14,261 nucleotides of DNA, from the UHGV virus genome UHGV-0074784. One strand, written 5' to 3'. The DNA comes from a virus. The position numbers were made by a program, and so were the translations under genes. Below, piece by piece: positions 2 through 9,925 of the stretch; positions within the stretch are counted from its first letter, which is position 1; each line of letters begins with the position of its first letter. The notes below the pieces were generated by a model. It was not told the origin of the DNA. It saw only the letters and a program-made list of their open reading frames with translations, and did no database searches.

Positions 2-787
2 TCTTTGTCGGTAAAAGTGGTCATTATGCTCCAGCCTCCGGTGCTTTTGGCATTAACGCGTAAGGCGCGTCGCCAGGGTAACCGCAATGCGTCGAATGTT
101 TATCAGCTTAACGTTGCGAAGCTTCAGGCAGCGGCATTTTCTCAACTGTCAGATTCTGACCCGTCAAAATCTGACGCATCAAAATCTGACCCGTCAAAAT
201 TTGATGCGTCGAAATCTGGCAAAAAAGCGGGTTTTCACCCGTCAGAATCTGGCGGGGATCCGTCAGTAAAATCAAAACATGATCCGTCAGATAAAAAACC
301 TTCTCGTCCGGACGCTTCGCAACCGGACACGCAGACGGATGAACAGGATTTTTTAACTCGCCATCCTGATGCGGTTGTATTCAGCCCTAAAAAGCGCCAG
401 TGGGGAACGCAGGATGATTTGACCTGCGCACAGTGGCTCTGGAAAAAAATCATCGCCCTGTACGAGCAAGCCGCCGAATGTGACGGCGAGGTGGTTCGTC
501 CCAAAGAACCGAACTGGACAGCCTGGGCAAACGAAATTCGCCTGATGTGTGTGCAGGATGGTCGTACTCACAAACAAATCTGCGAGATGTACAGCCGCGT
601 CAGCCGCGATCCGTTCTGGTGCCGTAACGTGCTCAGCCCGTCGAAGTTGCGGGAAAAATGGGATGAGCTTTCCCTGCGCTTATCGCCGTCCGTCAGCACG
701 CACACAGAAAAACGCGAAGACCCGTACTTCAAAGCCAGTTACGACAATGTGGACTACAGCCAGATCCCGGCGGGATTCAGGGGGTGA
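2..787 (+). CDS. Phage replication protein with DnaT-like (primosomal protein I-like) C-terminal domain; 5' end probably outside the window (alternatively starts at ATG 26)
   Basis: Frame is open from the window edge to the stop at 785-787. The C-terminus ...DYSQIPAGFRG closely resembles the E. coli DnaT C-terminus (...SQIPPGFRG) as I recall it. An S/D/K-rich low-complexity linker is encoded by tandem repeats. Position upstream of the nin/RusA region fits a lambdoid replication module. Confidence 0.6.
   Translation, partial: SLSVKVVIMLQPPVLLALTRKARRQGNRNASNVYQLNVAKLQAAAFSQLSDSDPSKSDASKSDPSKFDASKSGKKAGFHPSESGGDPSVKSKHDPSDKKPSRPDASQPDTQTDEQDFLTRHPDAVVFSPKKRQWGTQDDLTCAQWLWKKIIALYEQAAECDGEVVRPKEPNWTAWANEIRLMCVQDGRTHKQICEMYSRVSRDPFWCRNVLSPSKLREKWDELSLRLSPSVSTHTEKREDPYFKASYDNVDYSQIPAGFRG
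155..214 (+). repeat. Tandem ~15-bp repeat units (TCTGACCCGTCAAAA-like), including a perfect 16-bp direct repeat (155-170 and 185-200) and a perfect 11-bp inverted repeat (173-183 and 200-210), inside the replication gene; iteron-like
   Basis: Read directly: TCTGACCCGTCAAAAT occurs twice 30 bp apart; GACGCATCAAA is the reverse complement of TTTGATGCGTC. Further CCGTCAG-containing copies follow at about 236, 259 and 281, then an A-rich stretch. Confidence 0.55.
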
Positions 788-789
788 TC

Positions 790-1278
790 ATGAGTCTTTT
801 GAATGACGTTCAGAAATTCATTGAAGCCCATCCGGGCTGTTCTTCCGGAGACATTGCGGATGCTTTTGCAGGTTACTCACGGCTGCGCGTTCTGCAGTCA
901 GCAAGCAAGTTACGTCAGAGTGGGCGTGTGGCTCACCGTTGTGAAGGAGATACACGCAGACATTTCCCGCGCCTGACTGAGAGAGCGCAGGAGCCGGAAC
1001 CACAACCAGTTCGTGAAACCAGACCTGTGCGCAATTTCTATGTCGGCACTAACGATCCCCGGGTGATTTTGTGCCTGACCCGCCAGGCTGAAGAACTGGA
1101 GTCCAGGGGCTTATACCGTCGTGCTGCAACGGTGTGGATGGCGGCATTCCGTGAAAGCCACTCCCAGCCAGAACGAAACAATTTTCTGGCGCGTCGTGAG
1201 CAGTGCTTACAGAAAAGCAGCAAGCGCGCTGCATCGGGTGAAGAGTGGTATCTGTCAGGGAATTACGTGGGGGCGTAA
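790..1278 (+). CDS. Putative regulatory protein: N-terminal winged-helix-like region plus C-terminal PerC/Pch-like segment (tentative)
   Basis: ORF 784-1278; ATG at 790 preceded by a GGGGG Shine-Dalgarno-like run at 779-783. The C-terminal motif LESRGLYRRAATVWMAAF resembles the GLWRRAA..W signature I associate with PerC-family regulators in prophages. The start overlaps the upstream stop (translational coupling). Confidence 0.4.
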   Translation: MSLLNDVQKFIEAHPGCSSGDIADAFAGYSRLRVLQSASKLRQSGRVAHRCEGDTRRHFPRLTERAQEPEPQPVRETRPVRNFYVGTNDPRVILCLTRQAEELESRGLYRRAATVWMAAFRESHSQPERNNFLARREQCLQKSSKRAASGEEWYLSGNYVGA

Positions 1279-1604
1279 TGACGACGTTAACTCAATGCCA
1301 GCATCAGGTGCTGGATATGCTGATTTCTTACCAGAAAGAGCGTGGCTTTCCGCCAACCAATCAGGAGGTGGCAACCATGCTGGGATACCGTTCAGTGAAT
1401 GCAGCGGTAGAGCATCTTCGTGCACTGGAGAAAAAAGGCGTCATCACGATAAAGCGTGGCGTGGCCCGGGGGATCACGCTTCATACCACAGTGAAGGACG
1501 ACGACAGCGAGGCAGCCGGGATTATCCGCGCACTGCTTGCCGGTGAGGAAAACGCCAGACTGCGTGCAGCCCACTGGTTACATGAGAGGGGCCTGAAAGT
1601 ATGA
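1278..1604 (+). CDS. LexA-like N-terminal DNA-binding-domain protein lacking the S24 peptidase domain
   Basis: LTQCQHQVLDMLISYQKERGFPPTNQEVATMLGYRSVNAAVEHLRALEKKGVITIKRGVARGITL aligns by eye with the LexA N-terminal domain (LT..Q.EV...I......G.[37 protein letters not shown]). The protein is only ~108 aa, with no Ser/Lys peptidase domain or Ala-Gly cleavage region. ATG at 1278 overlaps the upstream stop (TAATG). Confidence 0.7.
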   Translation: MTTLTQCQHQVLDMLISYQKERGFPPTNQEVATMLGYRSVNAAVEHLRALEKKGVITIKRGVARGITLHTTVKDDDSEAAGIIRALLAGEENARLRAAHWLHERGLKV

Positions 1605-1990
1605 AGCTGATCCTGCCTTTCCCGCCCAGCGTGAACACGTACTGGCGACACCCCAACAAAGGGGCGTTTGCTGGTAAGAGTCTGATAAGCGCAGCGGGGC
1701 GCAAATTCCAGAGCGCGGCATGCGCAGCAATAGTTGAGCAGTTACGTCGTCTGCCGAAACCAACGTCGGCACCTGCTTCAGTGGAGATCGTGTTGTTTCC
1801 TCCGGATAACCGGATCCGCGATCTGGACAACTATAACAAGGCGCTGTTTGACGCCCTGACCCACGCGGGTGTGTGGGAAGACGACAGACAGGTGAAAAGA
1901 ATGCTGGTGGAGTGGGGACCGGTTATCCCGGAAGGGAAGGTCGAGATCACTATCAGTAAGTATGAGAAACCGGCGGGTGCAGCCGCCTGA
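1601..1990 (+). CDS. rusA: RusA-family Holliday junction resolvase (crossover junction endodeoxyribonuclease)
   Basis: 129 aa with the characteristic N-terminus MKLILPFPPSVNTYW and acidic residues (DLDNYNKALFDAL) typical of RusA. ATGA start/stop overlap with the upstream gene. Canonical nin-region position. Confidence 0.9.
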   Translation: MKLILPFPPSVNTYWRHPNKGAFAGKSLISAAGRKFQSAACAAIVEQLRRLPKPTSAPASVEIVLFPPDNRIRDLDNYNKALFDALTHAGVWEDDRQVKRMLVEWGPVIPEGKVEITISKYEKPAGAAA

Positions 1991-2009
1991 TTAAGAGGAG
2001 AAACGAAGT

Positions 2010-2807
2010 ATGAATAATCTGATGGTTATTGATGGTATTGAAGTTCGTCGTGATGCTTATGGGCGTTACAGCCTGAACGATCTGCACAGGGCTGCCGGTT
2101 CTCTGGATAAGCATAAGCCTGCATTCTGGCTCCGCAATGAGCAAGCTGAACGTTTAATAAGCGAGTTGCAGATTTGCAACTCGGTCAATATAGAGCCAGT
2201 TAACGTTATTCGTGGCGGAAATAACCAGGGGACGTATGTCTGCAAAGAACTGGTGTATGCCTATGCAATGTGGATCAGCCCGTCATTCCATCTGAAGGTG
2301 ATCCGTACTTTCGATATGGTAACCAGCACACCGGAAAAATTATCCGGGCAGGCTGCTGACAAGATGCAGGCTGGCGTGATCCTGCTGGACTTTATGCGCC
2401 GGGAATTAAACCTGTCTAACTCATCAGTGCTTGGTGCCTGTCAGAAACTCCAGGAGGCTGTTGGCTTACCGAATCTGGCACCGCGCTATGCCATTGATGC
2501 TCCTGCTGATGCACACGATGGCTCAAGTCGCCCGACACTGTCACTGAGTGCACTGCTGAAACAGTATGGTATCCGCCTGACGGCTAATCAGGCATATCAC
2601 CAGATGGTGAAACTGGGGATCGTCGAGCAGCGCGAACGATACAGCCGTACCGCGATTAACAACATCAAAAAATTCTGGTCGCTGACAGCGAAAGGTTGCA
2701 TGTTCGGCAAGAACATCACCAGTCCCGCAAATCCGCGTGAGACGCAGCCGCATTTCTTCGAATCCCGATTCCCTGAGCTGTTAAAGCTGCTCGATACCGT
2801 TCATTGA
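2010..2807 (+). CDS. KilA-N domain protein (antirepressor-like) with an uncharacterised C-terminal domain
   Basis: N-terminal ~100 aa (IEVRRDAYGRYSLNDLHRAAG...KPAFWLRNEQAERLISEL) matches the KilA-N pattern. Strong RBS AGGAG at 1994-1998 upstream of the ATG. Confidence 0.75.
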   Translation: MNNLMVIDGIEVRRDAYGRYSLNDLHRAAGSLDKHKPAFWLRNEQAERLISELQICNSVNIEPVNVIRGGNNQGTYVCKELVYAYAMWISPSFHLKVIRTFDMVTSTPEKLSGQAADKMQAGVILLDFMRRELNLSNSSVLGACQKLQEAVGLPNLAPRYAIDAPADAHDGSSRPTLSLSALLKQYGIRLTANQAYHQMVKLGIVEQRERYSRTAINNIKKFWSLTAKGCMFGKNITSPANPRETQPHFFESRFPELLKLLDTVH

Positions 2808-2808
2808 G

Positions 2809-3810
2809 GTGACCGTGAGAGCACTACTGACCCCTGAAATTGCCCCGTGTATGGGGATCGTATTGTTCAGGCCAGGTTCAGAGCTGATGCCCCTGTTTAT
2901 GCAGGGGCGTGTCCTGCTGGAGCCTGAGCCGGAACGTTATTCATCTTTCGCCAGTGGTGCCGTTCCGGCGGCATCACAACCGCTGGCGGATGATCCTGCC
3001 GTTCGGGCCGTGTTCCGCAATGAGGCAGTGATCCGTCGTGCTGGTGGCGTGGAATGTCTTGAAAGCTGGTTACTTCGTGAAAAAGGCTGCCAGTGGCCTC
3101 ATTCCGACTGGCACAGCGAGAACATGACCACAATGCGGCACGCGCCGGGCGCAATCCGTCTGTGCTGGCACTGCGATAACCAGTTGCGCGATCAGTTCAC
3201 GGAACGGCTGGAATCAATGGCAACGGATAACTGTGCCCGCTGGGTGTTATCTGTTGTGCGCCGTGATCTCGGTTTTGATGATAGTCACGTTGTGACAATG
3301 CCGGAACTGTGCTGGTGGCTGGTTCGTAATGACCTGGCGGATGCCTTACCGGAAAGTGCAGCCCGTAAGGCACTGAGATTACCGAAGCCTGTTGTGCCGT
3401 CTGTTACCCGGGAAAGTGACCTTGTGCCTTCGGTTCCTGCCACCAGCATCATCCAGGATAAAGCGAAAAAGGTGCTGGCGCTGAAAGTGGATCCGGAGTC
3501 GCCGGAGTCTTTTATGTTACGCCCAAAACGTCGCCGCTGGGTTAATGAAAAGTACACGCGCTGGGTTAAGACACAGCCGTGTGCATGTTGTGGAAAGCCT
3601 GCTGATGATCCCCACCACCTGACAGGTCACGGTCAGGGTGGAATGGGAACAAAAGCGCATGACCTCTTTGTGTTGCCTTTGTGCAGAAAGCATCACGACG
3701 AGCTGCATGCGGATACCGTGGCATTTGAAGAGATGTATGGCTCCCAGCTGGAGCTGATATTTCGTTTTATCGATCGTGCGCTGGCGATCGGCGTAATTGC
3801 GACAGCTTAA
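2809..3810 (+). CDS. DUF968-family phage protein (YdfU-like) with C-terminal Cys/His HNH-like zinc-binding motif
   Basis: 333-aa ORF with GTG start. C-terminus CACCGKPADDPHHLTGHG...LPLCRKHHDELH has CxxC...HH...CxxHH spacing typical of DUF968/HNH-like proteins encoded next to Q in lambdoid prophages (Qin ydfU-like arrangement). Confidence 0.65.
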   Translation: MTVRALLTPEIAPCMGIVLFRPGSELMPLFMQGRVLLEPEPERYSSFASGAVPAASQPLADDPAVRAVFRNEAVIRRAGGVECLESWLLREKGCQWPHSDWHSENMTTMRHAPGAIRLCWHCDNQLRDQFTERLESMATDNCARWVLSVVRRDLGFDDSHVVTMPELCWWLVRNDLADALPESAARKALRLPKPVVPSVTRESDLVPSVPATSIIQDKAKKVLALKVDPESPESFMLRPKRRRWVNEKYTRWVKTQPCACCGKPADDPHHLTGHGQGGMGTKAHDLFVLPLCRKHHDELHADTVAFEEMYGSQLELIFRFIDRALAIGVIATA

Positions 3811-4521
3811 GTGTATGGAGCGCTGAGAAGTATGAATCAACAAGACTTGAATTTTGTCAGAATAGAACTACGTCGTGCGCTGTTTGACTTCTCTGGGGGG
3901 ACAAAAGGGCAGCTTGAGGCTTTCACTGAACACCCACCAGCAGACAAAAATGCCACTCCACGCCGTGGAATTCATCTTGTCGAACTCGAAGGTGATAAGG
4001 GACCACGCTTTGTTAACTCGCTTTCCGCGCCATTGTACGTGCAAGAAACACGTAGCCGCCCCAGGCCAATGCCGCCGATAAAAGATGTAGAATTTGAGTC
4101 CGCGCCGTGGCGTAGGGCAGTGTCCGCGCTTAGTGGATACCAGCAGGCTTGGTTGCGGTACTGTTACGGTTTTGACCTTAACTATACGCACCAGGTGATG
4201 ATGTGTGAATACGTCTGGAAGGCTTATCAGAAATGCTTGGGTAAAAACTCACTTCAGGAGCGCGTAGTAAAAAAACTAATAGGCCTAGTATGGCTTGCAG
4301 GACAGGAAATTGCTGCAACCCGAAACAATGAAACCTATAAAGACTACGCTGGTGCGGCGCTGGCCCGTATGGTTAGCGTTGACCGTTCGACATGGTTGCG
4401 CGTCTATTCAGGCCACTGGGCTGGGTTAAAGGCCGCTTTTACCCAGCTTGATGAGTCTGCGCTGGCCATGGCTCTTGAATACTATGAGGATGAAGAAGCT
4501 CTCAAAGTGGGAGAAATATGA
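3811..4521 (+). CDS. Putative late-gene antitermination protein Q (non-lambda Q family); true start may be ATG 3832
   Basis: Sits immediately upstream of an intergenic region with an intrinsic terminator and the lysis cassette, and downstream of the DUF968 gene (same order as ydfU-quuQ). Assignment is mainly positional; no clear zinc-finger motif as in lambda Q. Confidence 0.5.
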   Translation: MYGALRSMNQQDLNFVRIELRRALFDFSGGTKGQLEAFTEHPPADKNATPRRGIHLVELEGDKGPRFVNSLSAPLYVQETRSRPRPMPPIKDVEFESAPWRRAVSALSGYQQAWLRYCYGFDLNYTHQVMMCEYVWKAYQKCLGKNSLQERVVKKLIGLVWLAGQEIAATRNNETYKDYAGAALARMVSVDRSTWLRVYSGHWAGLKAAFTQLDESALAMALEYYEDEEALKVGEI

Positions 4522-4613
4522 CGTAAATTTCACTATCTCCTTCAAACGCGCTTGCAAAATACAACAAAATAAGCCATATTGGAAGCATGTTTGATATGTT
4601 GCCAAAGTTTTAT
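4522..4613 (+). promoter_or_regulatory. Putative late promoter / Q-utilisation (qut) region
   Basis: Positional inference only. TTGCAA at 4553-4558 is -35-like, but no clean -10 hexamer at 17 +/- 1 bp could be found by eye. Confidence 0.25.
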
Positions 4614-4640
4614 AAACCCGCCGACGAGCGGGTTTTTTGA
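4614..4640 (+). terminator. Rho-independent terminator (tR'-like) downstream of Q
   Basis: AAACCCGC-CGACGA-GCGGG followed by TTTTTT: 5-bp GC stem (4617-4621 / 4628-4632), 6-nt loop, T6 run at 4633-4638. Confidence 0.8.
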
Positions 4641-4714
4641 TATGCGACATAACCTATAACATTTTTTATAAAATAAAATATAATTGCTTTACCATTATCC
4701 TGTGAGTTGAGCAA

Positions 4715-5500
4715 ATGTATATATTTGAATTGACCAAACCTGGCAACTGGCTTGAAAGTGAAGACAAAGAGTGGTCTTGGAAAATAGAACGGCTTTTGGA
4801 CCATCTTGAATTTGCATTTTATGAGGCTAATGTTGCATTAAATTTATTTATGCAGCAGCAAAACAATCAAATAGAACAACAAGGGGTTTCGCAATTGCAA
4901 TGGGAAAAAGAAATGCAAGAACGAAGAACCATCGAAACACTAGTTCGTGAGGAGTTAGGTTTATCCCCTTTTGAGAATCCTGAAAACATACAATTTGAGG
5001 TGGACGCGAGGTTTAAACGAGAAAAGTGGAGTTCTGGTGAAATTCCACGTAGCCACAAACATTGTGTGATTTTTATTTATGCAAAATCTTTTCTTTATTC
5101 TCTTGATACTATTGATAAATTTATAAAGGTTATTTCGAATGAACCTTATGCTCCTGAGTCGATAAAAGCCCTACACGATCAGATAGGTAAAGATTTTCCT
5201 GATCTCAGAGGGGTTAGGAATTCAACTCAACACCTCGAAGATAGGGCTCGAGGGCTTGGCGCAGGGAGAGAACCGAAGCCTTTGAATCTCCAGCCTATAA
5301 GTAATACCTTCATAAATGCACCGCAAGGTGCTTTGATATTAAATAATCTGAATGGCACCAAATTCGGGTCAACTATGTCTGATGGTCACTATGGTGAAGT
5401 GGACATTTCACCTGAATCGTTATCAAAAATGCAAAGTATTGTTCAGGGCGTTCTTGACTCGTTTAAGTGGGTTGGTAATCAGCAACACTTACCAAGTTAA
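4715..5500 (+). CDS. Hypothetical AT-rich cargo (moron) protein, 261 aa, with an R-N-x3-H (HEPN-like) motif; candidate toxin or abortive-infection effector
   Basis: Long ORF in a visibly AT-rich island (about 30-43% GC in sampled 60-bp lines versus ~52% in flanking phage genes). VRNSTQHLEDR at about residues 168-178 fits the Rx4-6H HEPN signature with the typical polar residue after R. Flanked by terminators at 4614-4640 and 5523-5549. No signal peptide or TM segment apparent. Confidence 0.6.
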   Translation: MYIFELTKPGNWLESEDKEWSWKIERLLDHLEFAFYEANVALNLFMQQQNNQIEQQGVSQLQWEKEMQERRTIETLVREELGLSPFENPENIQFEVDARFKREKWSSGEIPRSHKHCVIFIYAKSFLYSLDTIDKFIKVISNEPYAPESIKALHDQIGKDFPDLRGVRNSTQHLEDRARGLGAGREPKPLNLQPISNTFINAPQGALILNNLNGTKFGSTMSDGHYGEVDISPESLSKMQSIVQGVLDSFKWVGNQQHLPS

Positions 5501-5522
5501 CTAAACTTAATTATTCATATTA

Positions 5523-5549
5523 AGGCTGCCATATGGCGGCCTTTTTATT
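5523..5549 (+). terminator. Rho-independent terminator downstream of moron A
   Basis: AGGCTGCC-ATAT-GGCGGCCT forms an 8-bp stem with one G-U wobble, followed by TTTTTATT. Confidence 0.7.
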
Positions 5550-5593
5550 CCCTTCACTTTTGAGAGGATTCACAGCAATTAAGAGGGGGCTAA

Positions 5594-5980
5594 ATGTCCG
5601 ATCCGATTTCCGGCACAGGGTTAGCTGCTGGAGTCCTGACAGGCGCTAGTGTTTATGGACTGCTGACCGGAACTGATTACGGTGTTGTATTTGGCGCATT
5701 TGCAGGGGCTGTATTCTACATCGCAACAGCAGCAGATCTGAGTTTATCGCGTCGACTGGCATATTTTATCGTGTCGTATATTGCCGGAATCCTTTGCTCT
5801 GGGTTGGTTGGCTCCAAGCTGGCAAACTTGACCGGATACAGTGATAAACCTCTGGATGCTATTGGTGCCGTAATCGTCTCTGCTTTAGCCGTTAAAATCC
5901 TGACGTTTCTGAATAACCAGGATATCGGTTCGCTGGTGGCGCTTATAACGCGCCGGGGAGGTTCAGGTGGAGCTAAATGA
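5594..5980 (+). CDS. Phage holin (multi-TM small membrane protein)
   Basis: 128 aa, glycine/alanine-rich hydrophobic segments (GLAAGVLTGASVYGLLTG, VVFGAFAGAVFYIATAA, IVSYIAGILCSGLVG), charged C-terminus. RBS AAGAGGGGG upstream. Immediately precedes the endolysin. Confidence 0.7.
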   Translation: MSDPISGTGLAAGVLTGASVYGLLTGTDYGVVFGAFAGAVFYIATAADLSLSRRLAYFIVSYIAGILCSGLVGSKLANLTGYSDKPLDAIGAVIVSALAVKILTFLNNQDIGSLVALITRRGGSGGAK

Positions 5981-6248
5981 CCCGACAGCAACTATAAATG
6001 CGCTGTTATGTGCTTGTGTTGTTATTACTCTGATGTTTTATCGTCGTGGTGATTCGCGGCATCGTCCTTGGGTTTCACGTTTAGCCTGGCTGATTACTGT
6101 TACATACAGTGCTGTTCCGTTGGCCTATCTCTGTGGGATTTATCCCCATTCCTCATGGCCCATTATCGTGGCGAATACTATTTTTCTTTCCGTGCTGGTG
6201 GCCGTCAGAGGCAACGTTGCACGTCTGGTTGATCATCTGAGGCACTAA
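5967..6248 (+). CDS. Second small membrane protein of the lysis cassette (holin/antiholin-like)
   Basis: 93 aa with GTG start preceded by GGGGAGG; two or three hydrophobic segments (LLCACVVITLMFY, LAWLITVTYSAVPLAYLCGI, IIVANTIFLSVLVAV). Overlaps the upstream holin end and the endolysin start. Confidence 0.5.
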   Translation: MELNDPTATINALLCACVVITLMFYRRGDSRHRPWVSRLAWLITVTYSAVPLAYLCGIYPHSSWPIIVANTIFLSVLVAVRGNVARLVDHLRH

Positions 6249-6862
6249 TGAACCAACAATTATTTCAAAAGGCGGCTGGTATTAGCGCCGGGCTGGCTGC
6301 GCGCTGGTTTCCGCACATTGATGCGGCGATGAAGGAATTCGGCATTACAGCACCAGCGGATCAGGCAATGTTTATCGCTCAGGTAGGCCATGAGTCGATG
6401 GGGTTTAGCGCCGTAGTTGAAAATTTTAACTACACACCATCTGCGCTGGTGGCGTCGTTCGGAAAGAGGATTACACAGCAGCAGGCTGATGCCCTTGGCA
6501 GAACATCCGGACATGCAGCTCGTCAGGATGCTATTGCCAATCTTGTGTATAGCAACCGACTGGGTAACAAAGCACCAGGTGATGGCTGGAAATATCGTGG
6601 TAGAGGATTAATTCAAATCACTGGCCTCCATAATTATCGCATCTGTGGCGCGGCGCTGAAGTTAGATCTGGTGACTTCACCTGAACAACTGGAACAGGAG
6701 CTACAGGCCGCGCGCTCAGCTGCATGGTTCTACACCTCTAAAGGTTGCATGGTCTACGGTACCGATATTAATCGTGTTACGCGCATCATTAACGGCGGTC
6801 TGAACGGTATTGAGGATCGTAAGGTTCGATACAACAAGGCGCGGGCGGCGCTGCTGGTATGA
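6248..6862 (+). CDS. Endolysin, glycoside hydrolase family 19 (chitinase-like lysozyme)
   Basis: 204 aa with motifs typical of GH19 phage endolysins (FIAQVGHESMGF, YRGRGLIQITGLHNY, INGGLNG). TAATG start/stop coupling with the preceding gene. Confidence 0.85.
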   Translation: MNQQLFQKAAGISAGLAARWFPHIDAAMKEFGITAPADQAMFIAQVGHESMGFSAVVENFNYTPSALVASFGKRITQQQADALGRTSGHAARQDAIANLVYSNRLGNKAPGDGWKYRGRGLIQITGLHNYRICGAALKLDLVTSPEQLEQELQAARSAAWFYTSKGCMVYGTDINRVTRIINGGLNGIEDRKVRYNKARAALLV

Positions 6863-7251
6863 AGATGAGTTATTGGGCGCTCATTTTAACGTTTATTGCT
6901 TGTATTGCTGGTGGTCTTGTTTGGTCAGCGAATCACTATCATGGAAAGTTTCTGGAGGAGCAGAAGCGTGCTGACGCTGCGGAACAGCGAGCTGATTCTA
7001 CTGAGGCTATCACCGCGAATGTTCTGCGTACTATGGCAATAACGAACATCATTCAGGAGGCGAATCAATATGCAAAACAGCAGATCGCACTGGAGTCACA
7101 GAGAACCCAGGAAGATATCAAAGTGGCTGTTGCGGATGATGATTGTGCTTCACGTCCTGTGCCTGCTGCCGCTGCTGACCGGTTGCGGAAGTACGCGAAC
7201 AGTTTACGTGAGCATTCCGAAGACTCCACTACCAGTCAGCTTGACTTCTGA
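6859..7251 (+). CDS. i-spanin (Rz-like)
   Basis: 130 aa with N-terminal TM helix (YWALILTFIACIAGGLVW) followed by a charged, coiled-coil-like periplasmic domain. ATGA overlap with the endolysin stop. Contains the start of an out-of-frame lipoprotein ORF. Confidence 0.7.
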   Translation: MKMSYWALILTFIACIAGGLVWSANHYHGKFLEEQKRADAAEQRADSTEAITANVLRTMAITNIIQEANQYAKQQIALESQRTQEDIKVAVADDDCASRPVPAAAADRLRKYANSLREHSEDSTTSQLDF

Positions 7252-7384
7252 TACACCTGTACCGTTTATACCCAACCCACTGACGTATGGTGCAAGTCTT
7301 GATTTGAATGTAAGTTTGTTATCCGCGTTGGCTCAATGTAATAGGGATAAGTCTGATATCAGAATCATTGATAATCAAAATTGA
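7136..7384 (+). CDS. o-spanin (Rz1-like outer-membrane lipoprotein), overlapped architecture
   Basis: +1 frame relative to Rz; MMIVLHVLCLLPLLTGC supplies a signal peptide with lipobox LTGC. Mature part is proline-rich (PKTPLPVSLTSDTPVPFIPNP). Extends 133 bp beyond the Rz stop. Confidence 0.7.
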   Translation: MMIVLHVLCLLPLLTGCGSTRTVYVSIPKTPLPVSLTSDTPVPFIPNPLTYGASLDLNVSLLSALAQCNRDKSDIRIIDNQN

Positions 7385-7465
7385 TGTATATTTTTATCGT
7401 CATGTAGATAACGAACAAGGTATTCCTCTGATACGTTTCGTTGAATACAGGTCATGGGTAGGCAT

Positions 7466-7497
7466 TGCAATATCGCTTCGAAATTATCTGTGATAAT
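7466..7497 (+). promoter_or_regulatory. Possible sigma70 promoter for moron B (extended -10 TGTGATAAT; -35-like TTGCAA at non-optimal spacing)
   Basis: TGnGATAAT at 7489-7497 in the AT-rich intergenic region about 90 bp upstream of the ATG at 7588; TTGCAA at 7466-7471 gives a 20-bp spacer. Sequence-only prediction. Confidence 0.25.
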
Positions 7498-7587
7498 GCT
7501 CTTAATTTTGAATGTATGTATTTGGGAAAAGAGATAAAGTAATAGTCTAATTAATGGAGATATCCACAAAACACAAGAGGGACTATT

Positions 7588-8094
7588 ATGCGACCAGATC
7601 AATTTTTCTATCCAGATACTTTTACCTTTAATTCATCCACCTATTATGGTCAACGTGACTCATCTAAAGGTCGATTGTATATTCTTATTGAAAGTGACTT
7701 ATGTCCATTTAATATCGGCGATATCATTGTGCAAAAAATGGTCGACAGGGAAAGACTATTTGAAGTGCTTGATTACGAGGTACAAATTAGTCTCGAGGCT
7801 GGTTGCCCTGGCTACTCACATTTGGCGGTATTGATAGTGAAGGCATTGGATGTAAAAGAGAAGCCGAAGCAGATTACGACCCATTTGACGTTTAACGGTG
7901 CTATTAATGCTGGTGGTGATTTTCAAGCCGGTAATGACAATTCGATCACAAAGAATATAACCATTCAACAACTACATGATGCTATAGAGCATTGCAATGA
8001 TCCAGAGGTTAAAAGCCTTTGGCAAAAGCTATTGGAAAATCCGACGTTTGCTTCAATTGCTTCAATATTGGCAAAAAGTGCTTTAGGACAGTAA
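7588..8094 (+). CDS. Hypothetical AT-rich cargo (moron) protein, 168 aa, unknown function
   Basis: ORF with good RBS (AAGAGGGA, 7571-7578) in an AT-rich island (~35% GC in a sampled line) between the spanins and the HNH/terminase genes. Followed by an intrinsic terminator. Soluble, no TM segment or signal peptide, no recognisable catalytic motif. Confidence 0.55.
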   Translation: MRPDQFFYPDTFTFNSSTYYGQRDSSKGRLYILIESDLCPFNIGDIIVQKMVDRERLFEVLDYEVQISLEAGCPGYSHLAVLIVKALDVKEKPKQITTHLTFNGAINAGGDFQAGNDNSITKNITIQQLHDAIEHCNDPEVKSLWQKLLENPTFASIASILAKSALGQ

Positions 8095-8103
8095 TTCATC
8101 AAG

Positions 8104-8127
8104 CCCCATTCAATATGGGGTTTTTAT
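8104..8127 (+). terminator. Rho-independent terminator downstream of moron B
   Basis: CCCCAT-TCAAT-ATGGGG: 6-bp stem (8104-8109 / 8115-8120) followed by TTTTTAT. Confidence 0.75.
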
Positions 8128-8151
8128 GCTTATTACAAAGAGTTTTCTTCA

Positions 8152-8502
8152 ATGCCACCACGAACTCCAAAAGCCTGCCGTGTTCGCGGGTGCCGCCGTA
8201 CCACCACTGACCCGTCAGGTTATTGCGAAAGCCACAAAAGCGAAGGCTGGAAGCAATACAAGCCAGGACAATCCCGTCATCAGCGCGGCTACGGTTCGAA
8301 GTGGGACGTTATCCGCGCGCGTGTGCTGAAACGTGACAAAGGTTTATGTCAGTTATGTCTGCGCGCTGGTGTGGTGCGTGAGGCGAAAACTGTTGACCAC
8401 ATCATCCCTAAAGCGCATGGCGGCACTGATGCCGACTGTAATCTGCAGAGTCTGTGCTGGCCGTGTCATAAGGCGAAGACGGCCCGTGAACGGATTAAGT
8501 AA
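8152..8502 (+). CDS. Phage-associated HNH endonuclease (terminase-associated type)
   Basis: 116 aa with CxxC zinc-finger pairs (CRVRGC...C, CQLC, CWPCH) and the HNH catalytic region DHIIPKAHGG...N. Located immediately upstream of the small terminase, as in HK97-like cos packaging modules. Confidence 0.85.
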   Translation: MPPRTPKACRVRGCRRTTTDPSGYCESHKSEGWKQYKPGQSRHQRGYGSKWDVIRARVLKRDKGLCQLCLRAGVVREAKTVDHIIPKAHGGTDADCNLQSLCWPCHKAKTARERIK

Positions 8503-8520
8503 GAACCAGTTCCCACTGCC

Positions 8521-8590
8521 AGAGGGGAGGGGCGGGTCAAATCCCTGTGACCTGACGTCTTCCGGACTGCCCGCCCCATCGTTTTTTTAT
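8521..8590 (+). other. G/C-rich inverted repeat (GGGGCGGG ... CCCGCCCC) followed by a T7 run, between HNH and terS; candidate cos region and/or terminator
   Basis: 8-bp perfect inverted repeat at 8529-8536 and 8570-8577, then ATCGTTTTTTTAT. In HNH-dependent cos phages the cohesive-end site lies between the HNH and terS genes. Confidence 0.35.
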
Positions 8591-8627
8591 ACCCGCGAAA
8601 AATGAAATTTAACCAGGAGTGCCGCAT

Positions 8628-9122
8628 ATGGCTGGAACGGCGGGGCGTTCCGGGCGTCGCCCCAAGCCAACGGCGCGCAAGGCGCTGGCCGGAAACCCCG
8701 GCAAGCGAGCCCTGAATAAAGATGAACCTGTTTTTACGCCCATCAAAGGTGTTGAGCCACCGGAGTGGTTCGCAGAAGAAAATCTCCCTCTCGCCACGAT
8801 CATGTGGCAACTGACAACCAAAGAACTCTGCGGTCAGGGCCTGTTGTGCGTGACTGACCTCGCGGTGCTTGAGCGGTGGTGCGTGGCCTATGAGTTCTGG
8901 CGACGTGCCGTGAAAAATATTGCCATACAGGGCAACACCATCACCGGTGCAATGGGCGGCAGGGTCAAAAATCCGGAGCTGACCGCCAAAAAAGAACAGG
9001 AGTCCGAGATGAGCAGCACGGGGGCAATGCTCGGACTCGACCCCAGCAGCCGCCAGCGTCTGATTGGCCTGGCGGGGCAGAAGAAAGCCACTAACCCGTT
9101 TCTGAAAATCATCGAGTCATGA
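8628..9122 (+). CDS. Terminase small subunit (P27-family type)
   Basis: About 165 aa with a basic N-terminus ([25 protein letters not shown]), typical of P27-family small terminases. RBS AGGAG at 8615-8619. Directly precedes the large terminase with ATGA overlap. Confidence 0.8.
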
Positions 9123-9925
9123 GCCGGAAATCTTACCCCAACGTAAATGCTGCCAATCAGTATGCCCGTGATGTTGTGCGCGGAAAGATTGTGGCCTGCC
9201 AGTTTGTGATTCAGGCCTGCCAGCGCCATCTTGATGACCTGATGGCGGAAAAAAGTAAGTCGTTTCGTTACCGCTTCGACAAGGACCTGGCTGAACGGGC
9301 TGCCAAATTTATTCAGCTGTTGCCGCACACCAAGGGGGAGTGGGCATTCAAGAGGATGCCCATCACGCTGGAGCCGTGGCAGCTCTTTGTGATCTGCTGT
9401 GCGTTTGGCTGGGTCAATAAAGGCTCCCGGCTGCGCCGCTTCCGGGAGGTGTATACCGAAATCCCCCGTAAGAACGGCAAATCGGCAATCTCTGCCGGTG
9501 TTGCCCTGTATTGTTTTGCCTGTGATAACGAGTTTGGCGCGGAAGTGTATTCCGGTGCCACGACAGAGAAACAGGCGTGGGAAGTCTTTCGCCCGGCGCG
9601 ACTGATGTGTAAACGCACACCCATGCTGACGGAAGCGTTCGGGATTGAGGTTAACGCCTCAAACATGAACCGTCCGGAGGATGGCGCGCGGTTTGAACCG
9701 CTGATCGGTAACCCCGGTGATGGTTCATCACCCCACTGTGCCGTGGTGGATGAATATCACGAGCACGCCACCGATGCGCTTTATACCACGATGCTTACCG
9801 GGATGGGCGCGCGACGTCAGCCACTGATGTGGGCCATCACCACCGCCGGGTACAACATTGAGGGGCCGTGCTACGACAAGCGGCGGGAAGTTATCGAGAT
9901 GCTCAACGGTTCGGTATGTTTCTGA
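9119..9925 (+). pseudogene. Terminase large subunit, N-terminal ATPase domain only (C-terminal nuclease domain missing)
   Basis: Walker A-like EIPRKNGKS and Walker B-like AVVDEYHE are present, but the ORF stops after 268 aa (...EMLNGSVCF). Intact large terminases of this type are roughly twice as long. Downstream sequence switches to tail-gene coding. Confidence 0.75.

Follow-up and report, generated by a model that had tools for sequence, protein, structure and literature searches.

Here we describe the segment that lies between the lysis genes and the HNH-terminase genes in UHGV virus genome UHGV-0074784 (14,261 nucleotides; hereafter the window, meaning the whole stretch of DNA analysed). 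The host element is an e14/SfV-like lambdoid-Mu hybrid prophage of Escherichia coli. The segment holds one ORF of 168 amino acids, preceded by an AT-rich non-coding leader and followed by an intrinsic terminator; the spanin genes bound it on the left, and an HNH endonuclease gene and the gene for a P27-type TerS on the right (Table 1). This position between the lysis and packaging modules, the ORF with its strong ribosome-binding site, the terminator and an AT-rich island of about 740 bp are all as the original prediction had them. The block 7385-8151 (intergenic sequence plus ORF) has a GC content of 0.368, compared with 0.451 and 0.575 in the adjoining 3 kb to the left and right, respectively, and the GC profile runs at 0.32-0.41 over about 7200-8100 as against 0.49-0.60 in the flanks. 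The terminator has a fold energy of -12.4 kcal/mol (z = -2.7 relative to shuffles) and lies 24 nt from the HNH start codon.

Table 1. Features of the cargo cassette and its flanks, in window coordinates.
Feature	Position	Strand	Evidence or remark
Rz spanin gene	6859-7251		
Rz1/LysC o-spanin gene	7070-7384	+	Left flank of slot; Pfam LysC PF23793, E 3.7e-15
AT-rich non-coding leader of cargo	7385-7587	+	Sequence and GC profile
Extended -10-like TGTGATAAT	7489-7497	+	In cargo leader
Shine-Dalgarno AAGAGGGA	7575-7582	+	6 nt upstream of ORF ATG
ORF of 168 aa	7588-8094	+	ATG start
N-terminal six-stranded beta-barrel, proposed sensor/binding domain	7588-7857 (codons 1-90)	+	Predicted
Conserved segment	7858-7962 (codons 91-125)	+	No predicted secondary structure; carries FNGAINAGGDFQAGNDNSITKNITI
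Motif core F112-Q113-A114-G115	7921-7932		
Motif residue N118	7939-7941		
Helical tail and stop	7963-8094 (codons 126-168)	+	Constant part of module
Intrinsic terminator ending cargo unit	8101-8128	+	9-bp stem 8101-8123, then U-run; terminator scan
HNH endonuclease gene	8152-8502	+	Right flank of slot; Pfam HNH, E 5e-15
P27-type TerS gene	8619-9122		Next after HNH; Pfam Terminase_4, E 4e-20

The promoter that had been attributed to the cassette, with an extended -10 element, was not confirmed. For TGTGATAAT, one-mismatch matches to TGnTATAAT showed no excess over chance (6 found, 7.4 expected), and a two-hexamer scan found no promoter on the + strand in 7385-7587, upstream of the ORF. Alignment of the upstream regions of four family loci likewise gave no conserved promoter, the cargo leader not being conserved in the more distant loci. 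Since the terminator scan found no terminator between Rz1 and the ORF, read-through from the late operon is an equally good source of transcription. In E. coli the ORF runs in the direction of the late operon and lacks a verified promoter, and may for these reasons be a late lytic gene in this host rather than one expressed by the lysogen.

As judged by comparison with related prophages, 7385-8151 is a cassette with one cargo gene that is exchanged horizontally; the slot which it occupies, flanked by the lysis cassette and the HNH-terminase genes, is variable. Two relatives (L038 and L039) have an empty slot, in which the HNH ATG lies 26 bp past the Rz1 stop. Between the same Rz1 and HNH/TerS flanks, related E. 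coli prophages carry at least six unrelated alternative cargoes: a GrlR-like protein, an opposite-strand two-gene cassette, and unrelated ORFs of 131, 158, 74 and 169 aa. Relatives with these flanks are thus either empty or differently filled, which bears out the moron site proposed at the outset. The last ~10 codons of Rz1 vary with the cargo, the tails being unlike among the window, L039, L040 and L041, and the 3' end found in the window is common to all E. coli copies of its cargo; the left recombination junction therefore falls inside the 3' end of Rz1. When the slot was searched for together with its flanks (1.8 kb), 1325 of 5426 E. coli genomes matched the query at least partly, and the 168-aa cargo was present in only 27-29. 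Whatever the 168-aa protein does, the Rz1-HNH junction is a cargo hotspot which, with at least seven unrelated uncharacterised cargoes, makes a good hunting ground for new accessory genes. The prophage in the window is colinear with an intact relative up to position 9915, inside TerL, and by this measure is defective, deleted from TerL onwards, as had been suspected; the second AT-rich cassette that had been reported around the lysis genes is present upstream of them.

An intact copy of the 168-aa ORF, at least 98.5% identical, is present in 29 E. coli genomes; the carriers include an isolated phage as well as intact prophages, for example those of E. coli SCU-482 and MS 119-7. The pN/pS ratio is ~0.1 among the E. 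coli alleles (1-8 differences per pair), and one allele is truncated (P0003, 118 aa). Because pN/pS is low and full-length homologues are found down to about 20% identity, across Gammaproteobacteria and beyond, the ORF is, on these comparisons, a real gene. It matches no Pfam or NCBIfam model, and PADLOC-DB v2.0.0 gave no defence HMM match at E<=1 for the protein and no model match at E<=0.01 for seven alternative cargo proteins and two tandem paralogues, so that the defence function originally put forward is argued below from location and architecture.

The protein had been described as an orphan without an assignable family. We find that phrog_5789, which also takes in members with VQVG or VQIG motifs, matches it over its full length (E 1.5e-77), and an exhaustive profile search extends the wider family to ~79 cluster representatives, many of which align only at profile positions ~90-167, behind unrelated N-termini. 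On these alignments the protein is a divergent member of an uncharacterised modular family of phages and satellites, of which the literature on RHIM with phage or prophage and on BASS motifs gave no description. Foldseek against BFVD and the PDB returned no significant match (E > 0.1).

Every family member examined, in the window and at 10 other loci, lies in an AT-rich island, 4-21 GC points below its flanks and in most cases by at least 10. In 37 of 49 IMG/VR family loci both neighbours are on the opposite strand, and in none (0/49) are both co-oriented. A family member is therefore usually a lone gene opposed to both neighbours, an orientation that implies independent transcription at most other loci, although not in the window. 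Next to it are genes for capsid, protease, portal, terminase and D5/DUF927 primase: the family gene lies between TerL and portal in L006, directly ahead of capsid in elements whose gene order is that of capsid-forming PICIs (cf-PICIs) and, in one such element (L042), in the variable region ahead of the packaging operon. The authors describing cf-PICIs consider that variable region "expected to encode immune systems" (10.1101/2025.02.11.637232). At two loci (L015 and L035) there are tandem paralogues, each with the whole module, and no sensor. Matches were obtained in 3 of 50,697 phage records (an E. coli phage colinear with the window prophage, a record whose matching region has cf-PICI order and a 3.8-kb fragment), none of them an evidently virulent phage in a search where low-complexity masking weakened the module tblastn; in the loci examined, the family seems confined to phages and satellites.

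The protein is predicted to comprise an N-terminal beta-barrel, a non-globular segment and a helical tail. Residues 91-125 have no predicted secondary structure (pLDDT 44-45 with 19 sequences, 55-68 with 64 sequences) and are more conserved than the N-domain. The tail is composed of two amphipathic helices (residues 126-134 and 139-149) and a terminal hydrophobic helix (152-166), as assigned from the AF2 model together with hydrophobic moment and hydrophobicity; pLDDT is 79-86 up to residue 160 and 55 over the last eight residues. Across the wider family, hydrophobicity peaks in the last 17 residues (median KD17 1.68); the value is only 0.7-1.2 in the subfamily of the window, whose protein has a just moderately hydrophobic terminal helix. 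No TM segment was found in it, as originally predicted, the best 17-residue Kyte-Doolittle mean (1.34) falling within the beta-barrel. Motif segment and helical tail together form a constant module of ~72 residues, which in other members is fused to unrelated N-termini, including winged-helix-like and zinc-ribbon ones; the barrel is thus not the defining part of the family. The module is the most informative feature of the protein and was absent from the original account. The whole 72-residue module gave noise only against PDB sequences, and a word-index protein search with the module profile yielded short fragments only and zero domain fusions. In fold comparisons of the barrel, PilZ and flavin-binding barrels score the same as head-closure proteins. 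Kinship with the prophage's own head-closure protein was looked for by BLASTP, which gave no significant similarity.

The family motif, NIGSxSGxxVQVGNxN, matches Pfam RHIM (PF12721), and most other members have VQVG, VQIG or IQIG followed by N-x-N. The copy in the window has diverged to GGDFQAGNDN (G109-G110-D111-F112-Q113-A114-G115-N116-D117-N118): it keeps Q, G and N, has F at position 1 and A at position 3 where the RHIM tetrad is (I/V)-Q-(I/V/L/C)-G with a conserved N after it, and the G that precedes the tetrad in the G-phi-Q-phi-G signature is displaced. Q113, A114, G115 and N118 are invariant in 19 close homologues; in a 64-sequence alignment G115 is invariant, and Q113 and N118 are conserved in at least 90%. 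Among the 64 members RHIM is the commonest Pfam match (11/64 at E<=1), and the matched position was the family motif in all seven matches inspected. A single member (P0098) passes the RHIM gathering score (24.9 bits versus 20 bits, E 1.4e-5), the others reaching 10-17 bits. When an unselected 54-member motif-only profile was run against 177,635 PDB sequences, six matches were obtained (E 0.03-1.5), all six being RHIM cores, from RIPK1, RIPK3 and a viral RHIM protein; with a selected 15-sequence profile (E 0.017-1), the best six of eight matches were RHIM cores. These matches, all of them short and borderline by E-value (0.017-1.5), indicate that the wider-family motif is RHIM-like at the level of sequence. 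The window protein itself has no match to Pfam RHIM even at E<=10, and searching the PDB with a motif profile built from its own subfamily yields no RHIM. One member weakly matches Pfam PF17108 'HET-S' at the motif (E 0.009).

No partner gene sharing phi-Q-phi-G-x-x-N was found: in six frames over the window and seven related loci only the target ORF carries it, and the target was the sole match in 27 of 29 genome loci and, among the IMG/VR loci, in all those where it was called. In this respect the family is unlike every characterised amyloid-signalling system, which counts against the explanation that we favour.

That explanation, which we hold tentatively as plausible but short of probable, is that the exchanged cassette encodes a divergent member of the modular family whose motif drives a switch in phage defence or competition. 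The product would be a single-protein defence or competition factor that switches by motif-driven self-assembly, and is a candidate stand-alone anti-phage suicide or exclusion protein. By analogy, in a lysogen that expressed it, the N-domain would bind a trigger that arises when another phage infects; an oligomeric intermediate of head or neck assembly is one possibility. The resulting clustering would nucleate cross-beta self-assembly of the motif into an amyloid, assembly would run through the pool of protein, and the C-terminal helices, freed or re-oriented, might then damage the membrane or trap a target, so that the infection aborts or the competitor is excluded. Precedent is provided by Bab/Agp, an abortive-infection effector system in prophage hotspots of E. 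coli that is controlled by an amyloid motif (10.1101/2024.11.07.622273). In favour of this reading are the hotspot at the slot, the family membership, the placing of members in AT-rich islands and in a satellite's variable region, and a motif segment that is RHIM-like in the wider family and well conserved yet predicted to be unstructured. Besides the missing partner gene, weighing against it are the failure of the window protein and its subfamily in the RHIM comparisons, its F-Q-A-G core and moderately hydrophobic terminal helix, the borderline RHIM E-values, the lack of any PADLOC, Pfam or NCBIfam match, and the late-operon orientation in E. coli. A bolder version would make the family as a whole a single-polypeptide amyloid switch, combining phage sensor, RHIM-like nucleator and membrane-active helical tail in ~170 residues and carried by prophages and capsid-forming satellites to kill or exclude rival-infected cells; taken in full, we regard it as unlikely.

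The cargo might instead serve lysogenic conversion or another accessory role outside phage conflict (compare lambda bor), its RHIM likeness being that of a convergent N/Q/G-rich linker with no role in assembly. This is a serious possibility, if on the unlikely side: the slot also holds a protein resembling GrlR-family regulators, along with further cargo that bears no defence signature, the 168-aa protein matches no defence model, and the RHIM E-values are marginal and do not include the window protein. However, Q, G and N stay invariant between proteins that are ~20% identical, which speaks for a segment with a specific role, and a six-out-of-six specificity in the PDB is hard to obtain from composition alone; the seeming restriction of the family to phages and satellites also points away from such a role.

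A part in phage assembly seems quite unlikely. Here the protein would interfere with assembly or act as a morphogenesis accessory, the barrel mimicking a head-closure or stopper protein and acting on the heads or necks of its own, a competing or a helper phage, and the conserved segment serving as a binding strand instead of an amyloid switch. Interference with helper assembly is known among satellites, and the gene repeatedly adjoins packaging or head genes (HNH-TerS in the window, TerL-portal in L006, capsid in elements of cf-PICI order). Against it stand the equal scores of PilZ and flavin-binding barrels, the Foldseek E-values above 0.1 and the BLASTP result with the head-closure protein; the module also occurs on N-termini other than the barrel, and opposite orientation, AT-richness and presence/absence polymorphism are unusual in structural genes.

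About as unlikely, in our estimate, is a counter-defence decoy, a phage-borne RHIM-like motif that co-assembles with and poisons a host amyloid Abi system such as Bab/Agp. The herpesvirus RHIM proteins M45 and ICP6 block RIPK1/RIPK3/ZBP1 signalling in the same manner, E. coli has amyloid-controlled Abi, the motif is RHIM-like at family level with one PDB match (12kl_B) being a viral RHIM inhibitor bound to RIPK3, and a missing partner gene suits a protein aimed at a host-encoded partner; the window gene, co-oriented with the late operon and with no upstream terminator, would moreover be made during lytic growth. Most members, however, are lone, AT-rich and opposed to phage or satellite operons, as is usual for expression from a resident element and not for early infection; none of the three matching phage records is evidently virulent; and a variable N-domain on a constant module resembles a sensor plus an effector. 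Finally, a non-functional or decaying ORF kept by chance, for which the TerL deletion and the 118-aa allele might speak, is effectively refuted by its conservation in intact prophages and an isolated phage, its low pN/pS (albeit from few differences), its full-length homologues and its confident AF2 fold.

In animals, necroptosis is under the control of RHIM-type amyloid motifs, which have fungal relatives and have been described from filamentous bacteria in two-gene NLR-effector pairs; a two-gene amyloid abortive-infection system of E. coli was reported only in 2024. If the bolder single-polypeptide version is real, the family would be the first amyloid-controlled abortive-infection system to consist of one gene, and a RHIM-like element active in unicellular Gammaproteobacteria and their viruses. 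So compact a version would carry amyloid immune switching into phage-versus-phage conflict, in prophage slots and satellite regions, and would offer a very small (~170 aa), tractable model of ligand binding that nucleates a functional amyloid. The signature phi-Q-phi-G-N-x-N followed by the helical tail D-x-E-A-K-S-L-L-x-x-L-L-E-N could then be used to mine more sensors.

Like RHIM proteins (PF12721; RIPK1, RIPK3, ZBP1 and TRIF, and viral M45 and ICP6), the family has a short N/Q/G-rich phi-Q-phi-G-x-x-N core within a non-globular stretch, which is internal and not terminal. It differs from them in its bacterial phage and satellite setting and in pairing the motif with a small beta-barrel and a helical tail of 45 residues, neither a kinase nor a Z-alpha domain being present; the F-Q-A-G of the window fails the RHIM tests, and amyloid formation in the family is our proposal.

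With Bab/Agp (BASS11), compared here by description only, the family shares residence in prophage hotspots of E. coli, a short conserved motif adjoining a small helical unit with a terminal hydrophobic helix, and the proposed logic of sensor, motif assembly and helical membrane effector. In Bab/Agp and in the Bell-NLR pairs (BASS1-10, of which BASS3 is RHIM-like), two adjacent genes share the motif, at the C-terminus of the effector and the N-terminus of the sensor, whereas in the family it occurs once per locus, in one protein. The order is also mirrored: Bab has an N-terminal hydrophobic helix and then the motif, and the family has the motif, the helices and a C-terminal hydrophobic helix. 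The 168-aa protein lacks the Bell, NLR and TPR-GreA/B-C-PIN domains of these systems, and no Bell/HeLo-like effector domain with an N-terminal hydrophobic helix was found in it, there being no Pfam match and the helical unit lying C-terminal to the motif. The residues reported for Bab (OWC60847.1), I87-G88-S89-V90, Q92, D99 and N100, seem compatible with an 'IGSV...Q...DN' pattern, which we note as a lead only.

PP-motif (HeLo/Hell-domain) systems, whose PP motif is RHIM-related, also join a prion-like motif to a folded domain that restrains a terminal hydrophobic helix. The family differs in having no HeLo/Hell domain, the opposite domain order, one gene that includes a putative sensor domain of its own and a bacterial host. 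As to genomic setting, the closest parallels are the variable regions of cf-PICIs and lambdoid morons such as bor, which in lambda lies downstream of Rz. Lambda Bor is an outer-membrane lipoprotein encoded on the opposite strand, whereas the 168-aa cargo, a cytoplasmic protein with no sequence relationship to Bor, is encoded in E. coli in the same direction as the late operon. As in both of these settings, however, the cargo is AT-rich, bounded by a terminator and placed at a module boundary, and it is present, absent or swapped among otherwise near-identical elements.

The cargo protein, regarded in the original prediction as an orphan without a family, has a full-length match to phrog_5789, a family of unknown function (E 1.5e-77). 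A word-index search returned 22 relatives, mostly unnamed, at 48-98% identity, and an exhaustive profile search, covering 1.84 billion cluster representatives, gave 79 at E ≤ 1e-3, most of them 150-180 aa long. Many of these representatives align at profile positions ~90-167 only and have unrelated N-termini (a beta-rich phrog_16834 domain, DUF2513-like winged-helix-type domains, a zinc ribbon and others), so residues ~96-168 form a constant module carried on variable heads. Two family members lie on the same strand in Enterobacter soli (L035, 4862-6213) and Vreelandella (L015, 3542-6213), adjacent in the former and 1.5 kb apart in the latter; their N-terminal domains differ and their motif-plus-tail modules are alike, which would fit an array of alternative sensors. 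Two giant RTX/cadherin-like adhesins with Big_9 and Cadherin_4/5 repeats, P0025 (4708 aa) and P0096 (1793 aa), match the first ~60 positions of the barrel profile in 13 and 5 repeats, respectively; the summed E value of P0025 (1.5e-27) reflects either beta-domain homology or a repeat-summed artefact.

AlphaFold2 models of the cargo protein, built from 19- and 64-sequence alignments, place a confidently predicted six-stranded beta-barrel before a low-confidence segment lacking predicted secondary structure and three predicted helices. The unstructured segment is among the most conserved parts of the protein, its column entropy being below that of the barrel. Close family members all have F102, Q113, A114, G115 and N118; across 64 sequences at ~20% identity, G115 is still invariant and Q113 and N118 are at least 90% conserved. 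The first two helices are amphipathic and the last is hydrophobic. In 87.5% of wider-family members no stretch is more hydrophobic than the final 17 residues (consensus TVASIIGAGASALLGLL), whose median KD17 is 1.68 as against 0.7-1.2 in the window's subfamily; the window copy has the least hydrophobic tail of the family.

The family motif has the consensus f-N-I-G-S-i-s-G-x-x-V-Q-V-G-N-x-N-x-Q-x-x-N-I-t-I and resembles the core of the RIP homotypic interaction motif (RHIM), I/V-Q-I/V-G-x-x-N. RHIM (PF12721) was by far the most frequent Pfam match (11 of 64 members at E ≤ 1; runner-up family, 4) and sat on the motif in all seven matches inspected. One homologue, P0098, passes the curated threshold (24.9 versus 20 bits, E 1.4e-5); others score 10-17 bits. 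In the reverse test, a 26-position motif profile built from every one of the 54 members that do not belong to the window's subfamily was run against 177,635 distinct PDB sequences. All six matches at E ≤ 10 were RHIM amyloid cores: RIPK1 (8ib0 and 9m6m, E 0.03), RIPK3 (7dac, 12kl_A and 7da4) and a viral RHIM partner (12kl_B). With a profile of 15 hand-picked sequences these six again ranked first, ahead of two pectate-lyase chains. These profile matches argue for a RHIM-like motif in the wider family. The core of the window's subfamily has diverged to G-G-D-F-Q-A-G-(N/S)-x-N, making the window copy part of the least RHIM-like branch; the Pfam RHIM model did not match the window protein, and a subfamily-only motif profile retrieved no RHIM from the PDB. 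The window protein is thus tied to the motif by full-length homology, not by its own score.

The 168-codon ORF was confirmed at 7588-8094 (+), in a block (7385-8151) with a GC content of 0.368, its 3-kb flanks being at 0.451 and 0.575 (0.32-0.41 across ~7200-8100 versus 0.49-0.60 on either side). Two holins, a GH19 endolysin, Rz and Rz1/LysC lie upstream; the genes downstream encode an HNH endonuclease and a small terminase of the P27 type. The ORF, its strong ribosome-binding site, AT-rich island, intrinsic terminator and placement between lysis and HNH/terminase genes were all as predicted. Of the proposed private promoter, the extended -10 sequence exists, but such one-mismatch matches are no more frequent than chance (6 observed, 7.4 expected), and a two-hexamer scan of 7385-7587 (+ strand) found no promoter upstream of the ORF. 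As there is also no terminator between Rz1 and the ORF, transcription by late-operon read-through is no less likely than transcription from a private promoter.

The Rz1-HNH interval is a cargo hotspot, in line with the insertion site originally proposed between lysis and packaging genes. Of 5426 complete E. coli genomes, 1325 gave a full or partial match to a 1.8-kb query across the flanks, and only 27-29 contain this cargo. Where relatives share both the Rz1 and the HNH-TerS flank, the slot is empty (26 bp; L038, L039) or is occupied by a GrlR-family protein of 106 aa that has its own terminator (L040), an opposite-strand gene encoding 131 aa (L043), unrelated proteins of 158 aa (L044) or 169 aa (L047), a 74-aa ORF (L046) or an opposite-strand two-gene cassette (L041, L045). 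PADLOC matched none of seven alternative cargo proteins. The left junction falls within the last Rz1 codons, the Rz1 C-terminal tail varying with the cargo, and the right junction is directly 5' of the HNH start codon. The two-gene cassette (L041 856-1863; L045 446-1451) pairs a conserved 111-aa protein (WP_001089762.1) with a variable partner of 219 or 189 aa and looks like an uncharacterised two-component system with no PADLOC match.

In the window's subfamily, the gene is often downstream of lysis genes and co-oriented. It also occurs alone and opposed, between genes for an SLT-domain protein and a primase in Serratia, and between TerL and portal on a contig with head genes matching Bbp16, Bbp19, GP7 and Head-tail_con. 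At 49 IMG/VR loci of the wider family, both neighbours are on the opposite strand in 37, one in 12, and both are co-oriented in none. An AT-rich island was present at 11 of 11 family loci measured. When pooled, the neighbours are for the most part capsid, prohead protease, portal and Mu-like head proteins and primases of the D5/DUF927 type, occasionally AbiV or DUF4917. The gene order of L042, a circular Klebsiella element of 16 kb, is that of a capsid-forming PICI (cf-PICI): integrase, AlpA, primase, family member (opposite strand), capsid, protease, portal, connectors, HNH, TerS, TerL. The cf-PICI literature describes the variable regions on either side of the packaging operon as 'expected to encode immune systems' (10.1101/2025.02.11.637232).

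Matches occur in 3 of 50,697 phage records: an E. coli phage that is colinear with the prophage of the window, a record with cf-PICI gene order in the matching region, and a 3.8-kb fragment. The end of the Klebsiella phage P12620-1 record (L008, 96.5-106.5 kb of 106 kb) shares with L042 the order portal, protease, capsid, family member, DUF927 primase, with identical or nearly identical gene sizes, which suggests satellite sequence joined to, or co-assembled with, a phage genome. A conserved GC-rich hairpin and T-run directly upstream of the family gene in the otherwise unrelated contexts L003 and L006 (~5900-5990) may be an insulating terminator travelling with the cassette.

The window is colinear with the intact prophage L002 from 1272 to 9915 (98.3%). 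Homology stops inside TerL, of which 268 of 577 codons are left, so the window's prophage is deleted from there on and is defective, as had been proposed. Portal and capsid genes, which come after TerL in L002, should be within the missing stretch; the ORFs beyond the 9915-9925 junction look like a tail/baseplate region. At 1272-1281, ~640 bp with a phage N6-adenine methyltransferase gene are absent relative to L002, and BLAST alignments join the flanks over a ~10-bp overlap. The first AT-rich cassette, also found in L002, occupies the position at which Stx phages carry stx; its ORF had no match in Pfam, NCBIfam or PADLOC. The tandem repeats lie in an ORF (5-787) with a phage 689R6 counterpart annotated 'DNA replication protein O'. 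They encode a repeated DPSKSDASKS stretch and resemble origin iterons of the kind found in the lambda O gene.

Features of the window and regions of the cargo protein
Feature	Position	Strand	Details
Tandem repeats	155-218		four, 15 bp, TCTGACCCGTCAAAA
First AT-rich cassette	4522-5560		GC 0.34-0.41; between antiterminator Q (3811-4521) and holins
Terminator-like hairpins	4614-4635; 5522-5543		first cassette
Sigma-70-like promoter	4656-4684		10/12; first cassette
261-aa ORF	4715-5500		phrog_5322, function unknown
Extended -10-like	7489-7497	+	TGTGATAAT, one mismatch
Shine-Dalgarno	7575-7582	+	AAGAGGGA, good match
Intrinsic terminator	8101-8123	+	9-bp stem; -12.4 kcal/mol, z -2.7
Six-stranded beta-barrel	residues 1-90		pLDDT per block ~73-92 (19 sequences), 82-97 (64)
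No predicted secondary structure	residues 91-125		pLDDT 44-45 (19 sequences), 55-68 (64)
Three predicted helices	residues 126-134, 139-149, 152-166		

The variable head and constant module, the conserved unstructured RHIM-like segment, the hydrophobic terminal helix and the phage and satellite hotspot locations point to an amyloid switch, which we propose tentatively. The N-terminal domain would bind a trigger and thereby cluster the motif; cross-beta assembly would spread through the protein pool, and the C-terminal helices would then act on the membrane or on a target, so that the infection aborts or a competing phage is excluded. Beyond the domain layout, we infer each of these steps. It is unlikely that the protein has an unrelated accessory function and a linker that merely looks like a RHIM. 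The barrel, one of several alternative heads in the family, could be stopper-like and interfere with assembly, which we consider improbable, and a decoy against host amyloid signalling in the style of viral RHIMs seems quite improbable. A junk ORF is scarcely credible, pN/pS for the gene being ~0.1 among E. coli alleles (few differences).

The amyloid-switch model invites comparison with known systems. RHIM, the fungal PP motif and bacterial BASS3 have a G-phi-Q-phi-G signature in common, and BASS motifs, reported from multicellular bacteria, are C-terminal in Bell effectors and N-terminal in the neighbouring NLRs (10.1101/2020.01.06.895854). The E. coli pair Bab/Agp shares BASS11, mediates abortive infection against T5 and is sited in prophage hotspots (10.1101/2024.11.07.622273). 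By contrast, the motif of the phrog_5789 family is internal and occurs once per locus, no partner gene sharing it having been found at family loci, and the putative sensor is in the same polypeptide. Relative to Bab and HET-S the order is mirrored, the helical unit following the motif and ending in a hydrophobic helix. As it differs on every defining point, the family would work like these amyloid-signalling systems, if at all, and is not a member of them; the literature searched gave no description of it or of a one-gene RHIM-like phage protein. The family may represent a variant of amyloid-motif immune signalling, with the window copy at its least RHIM-like and least hydrophobic end.
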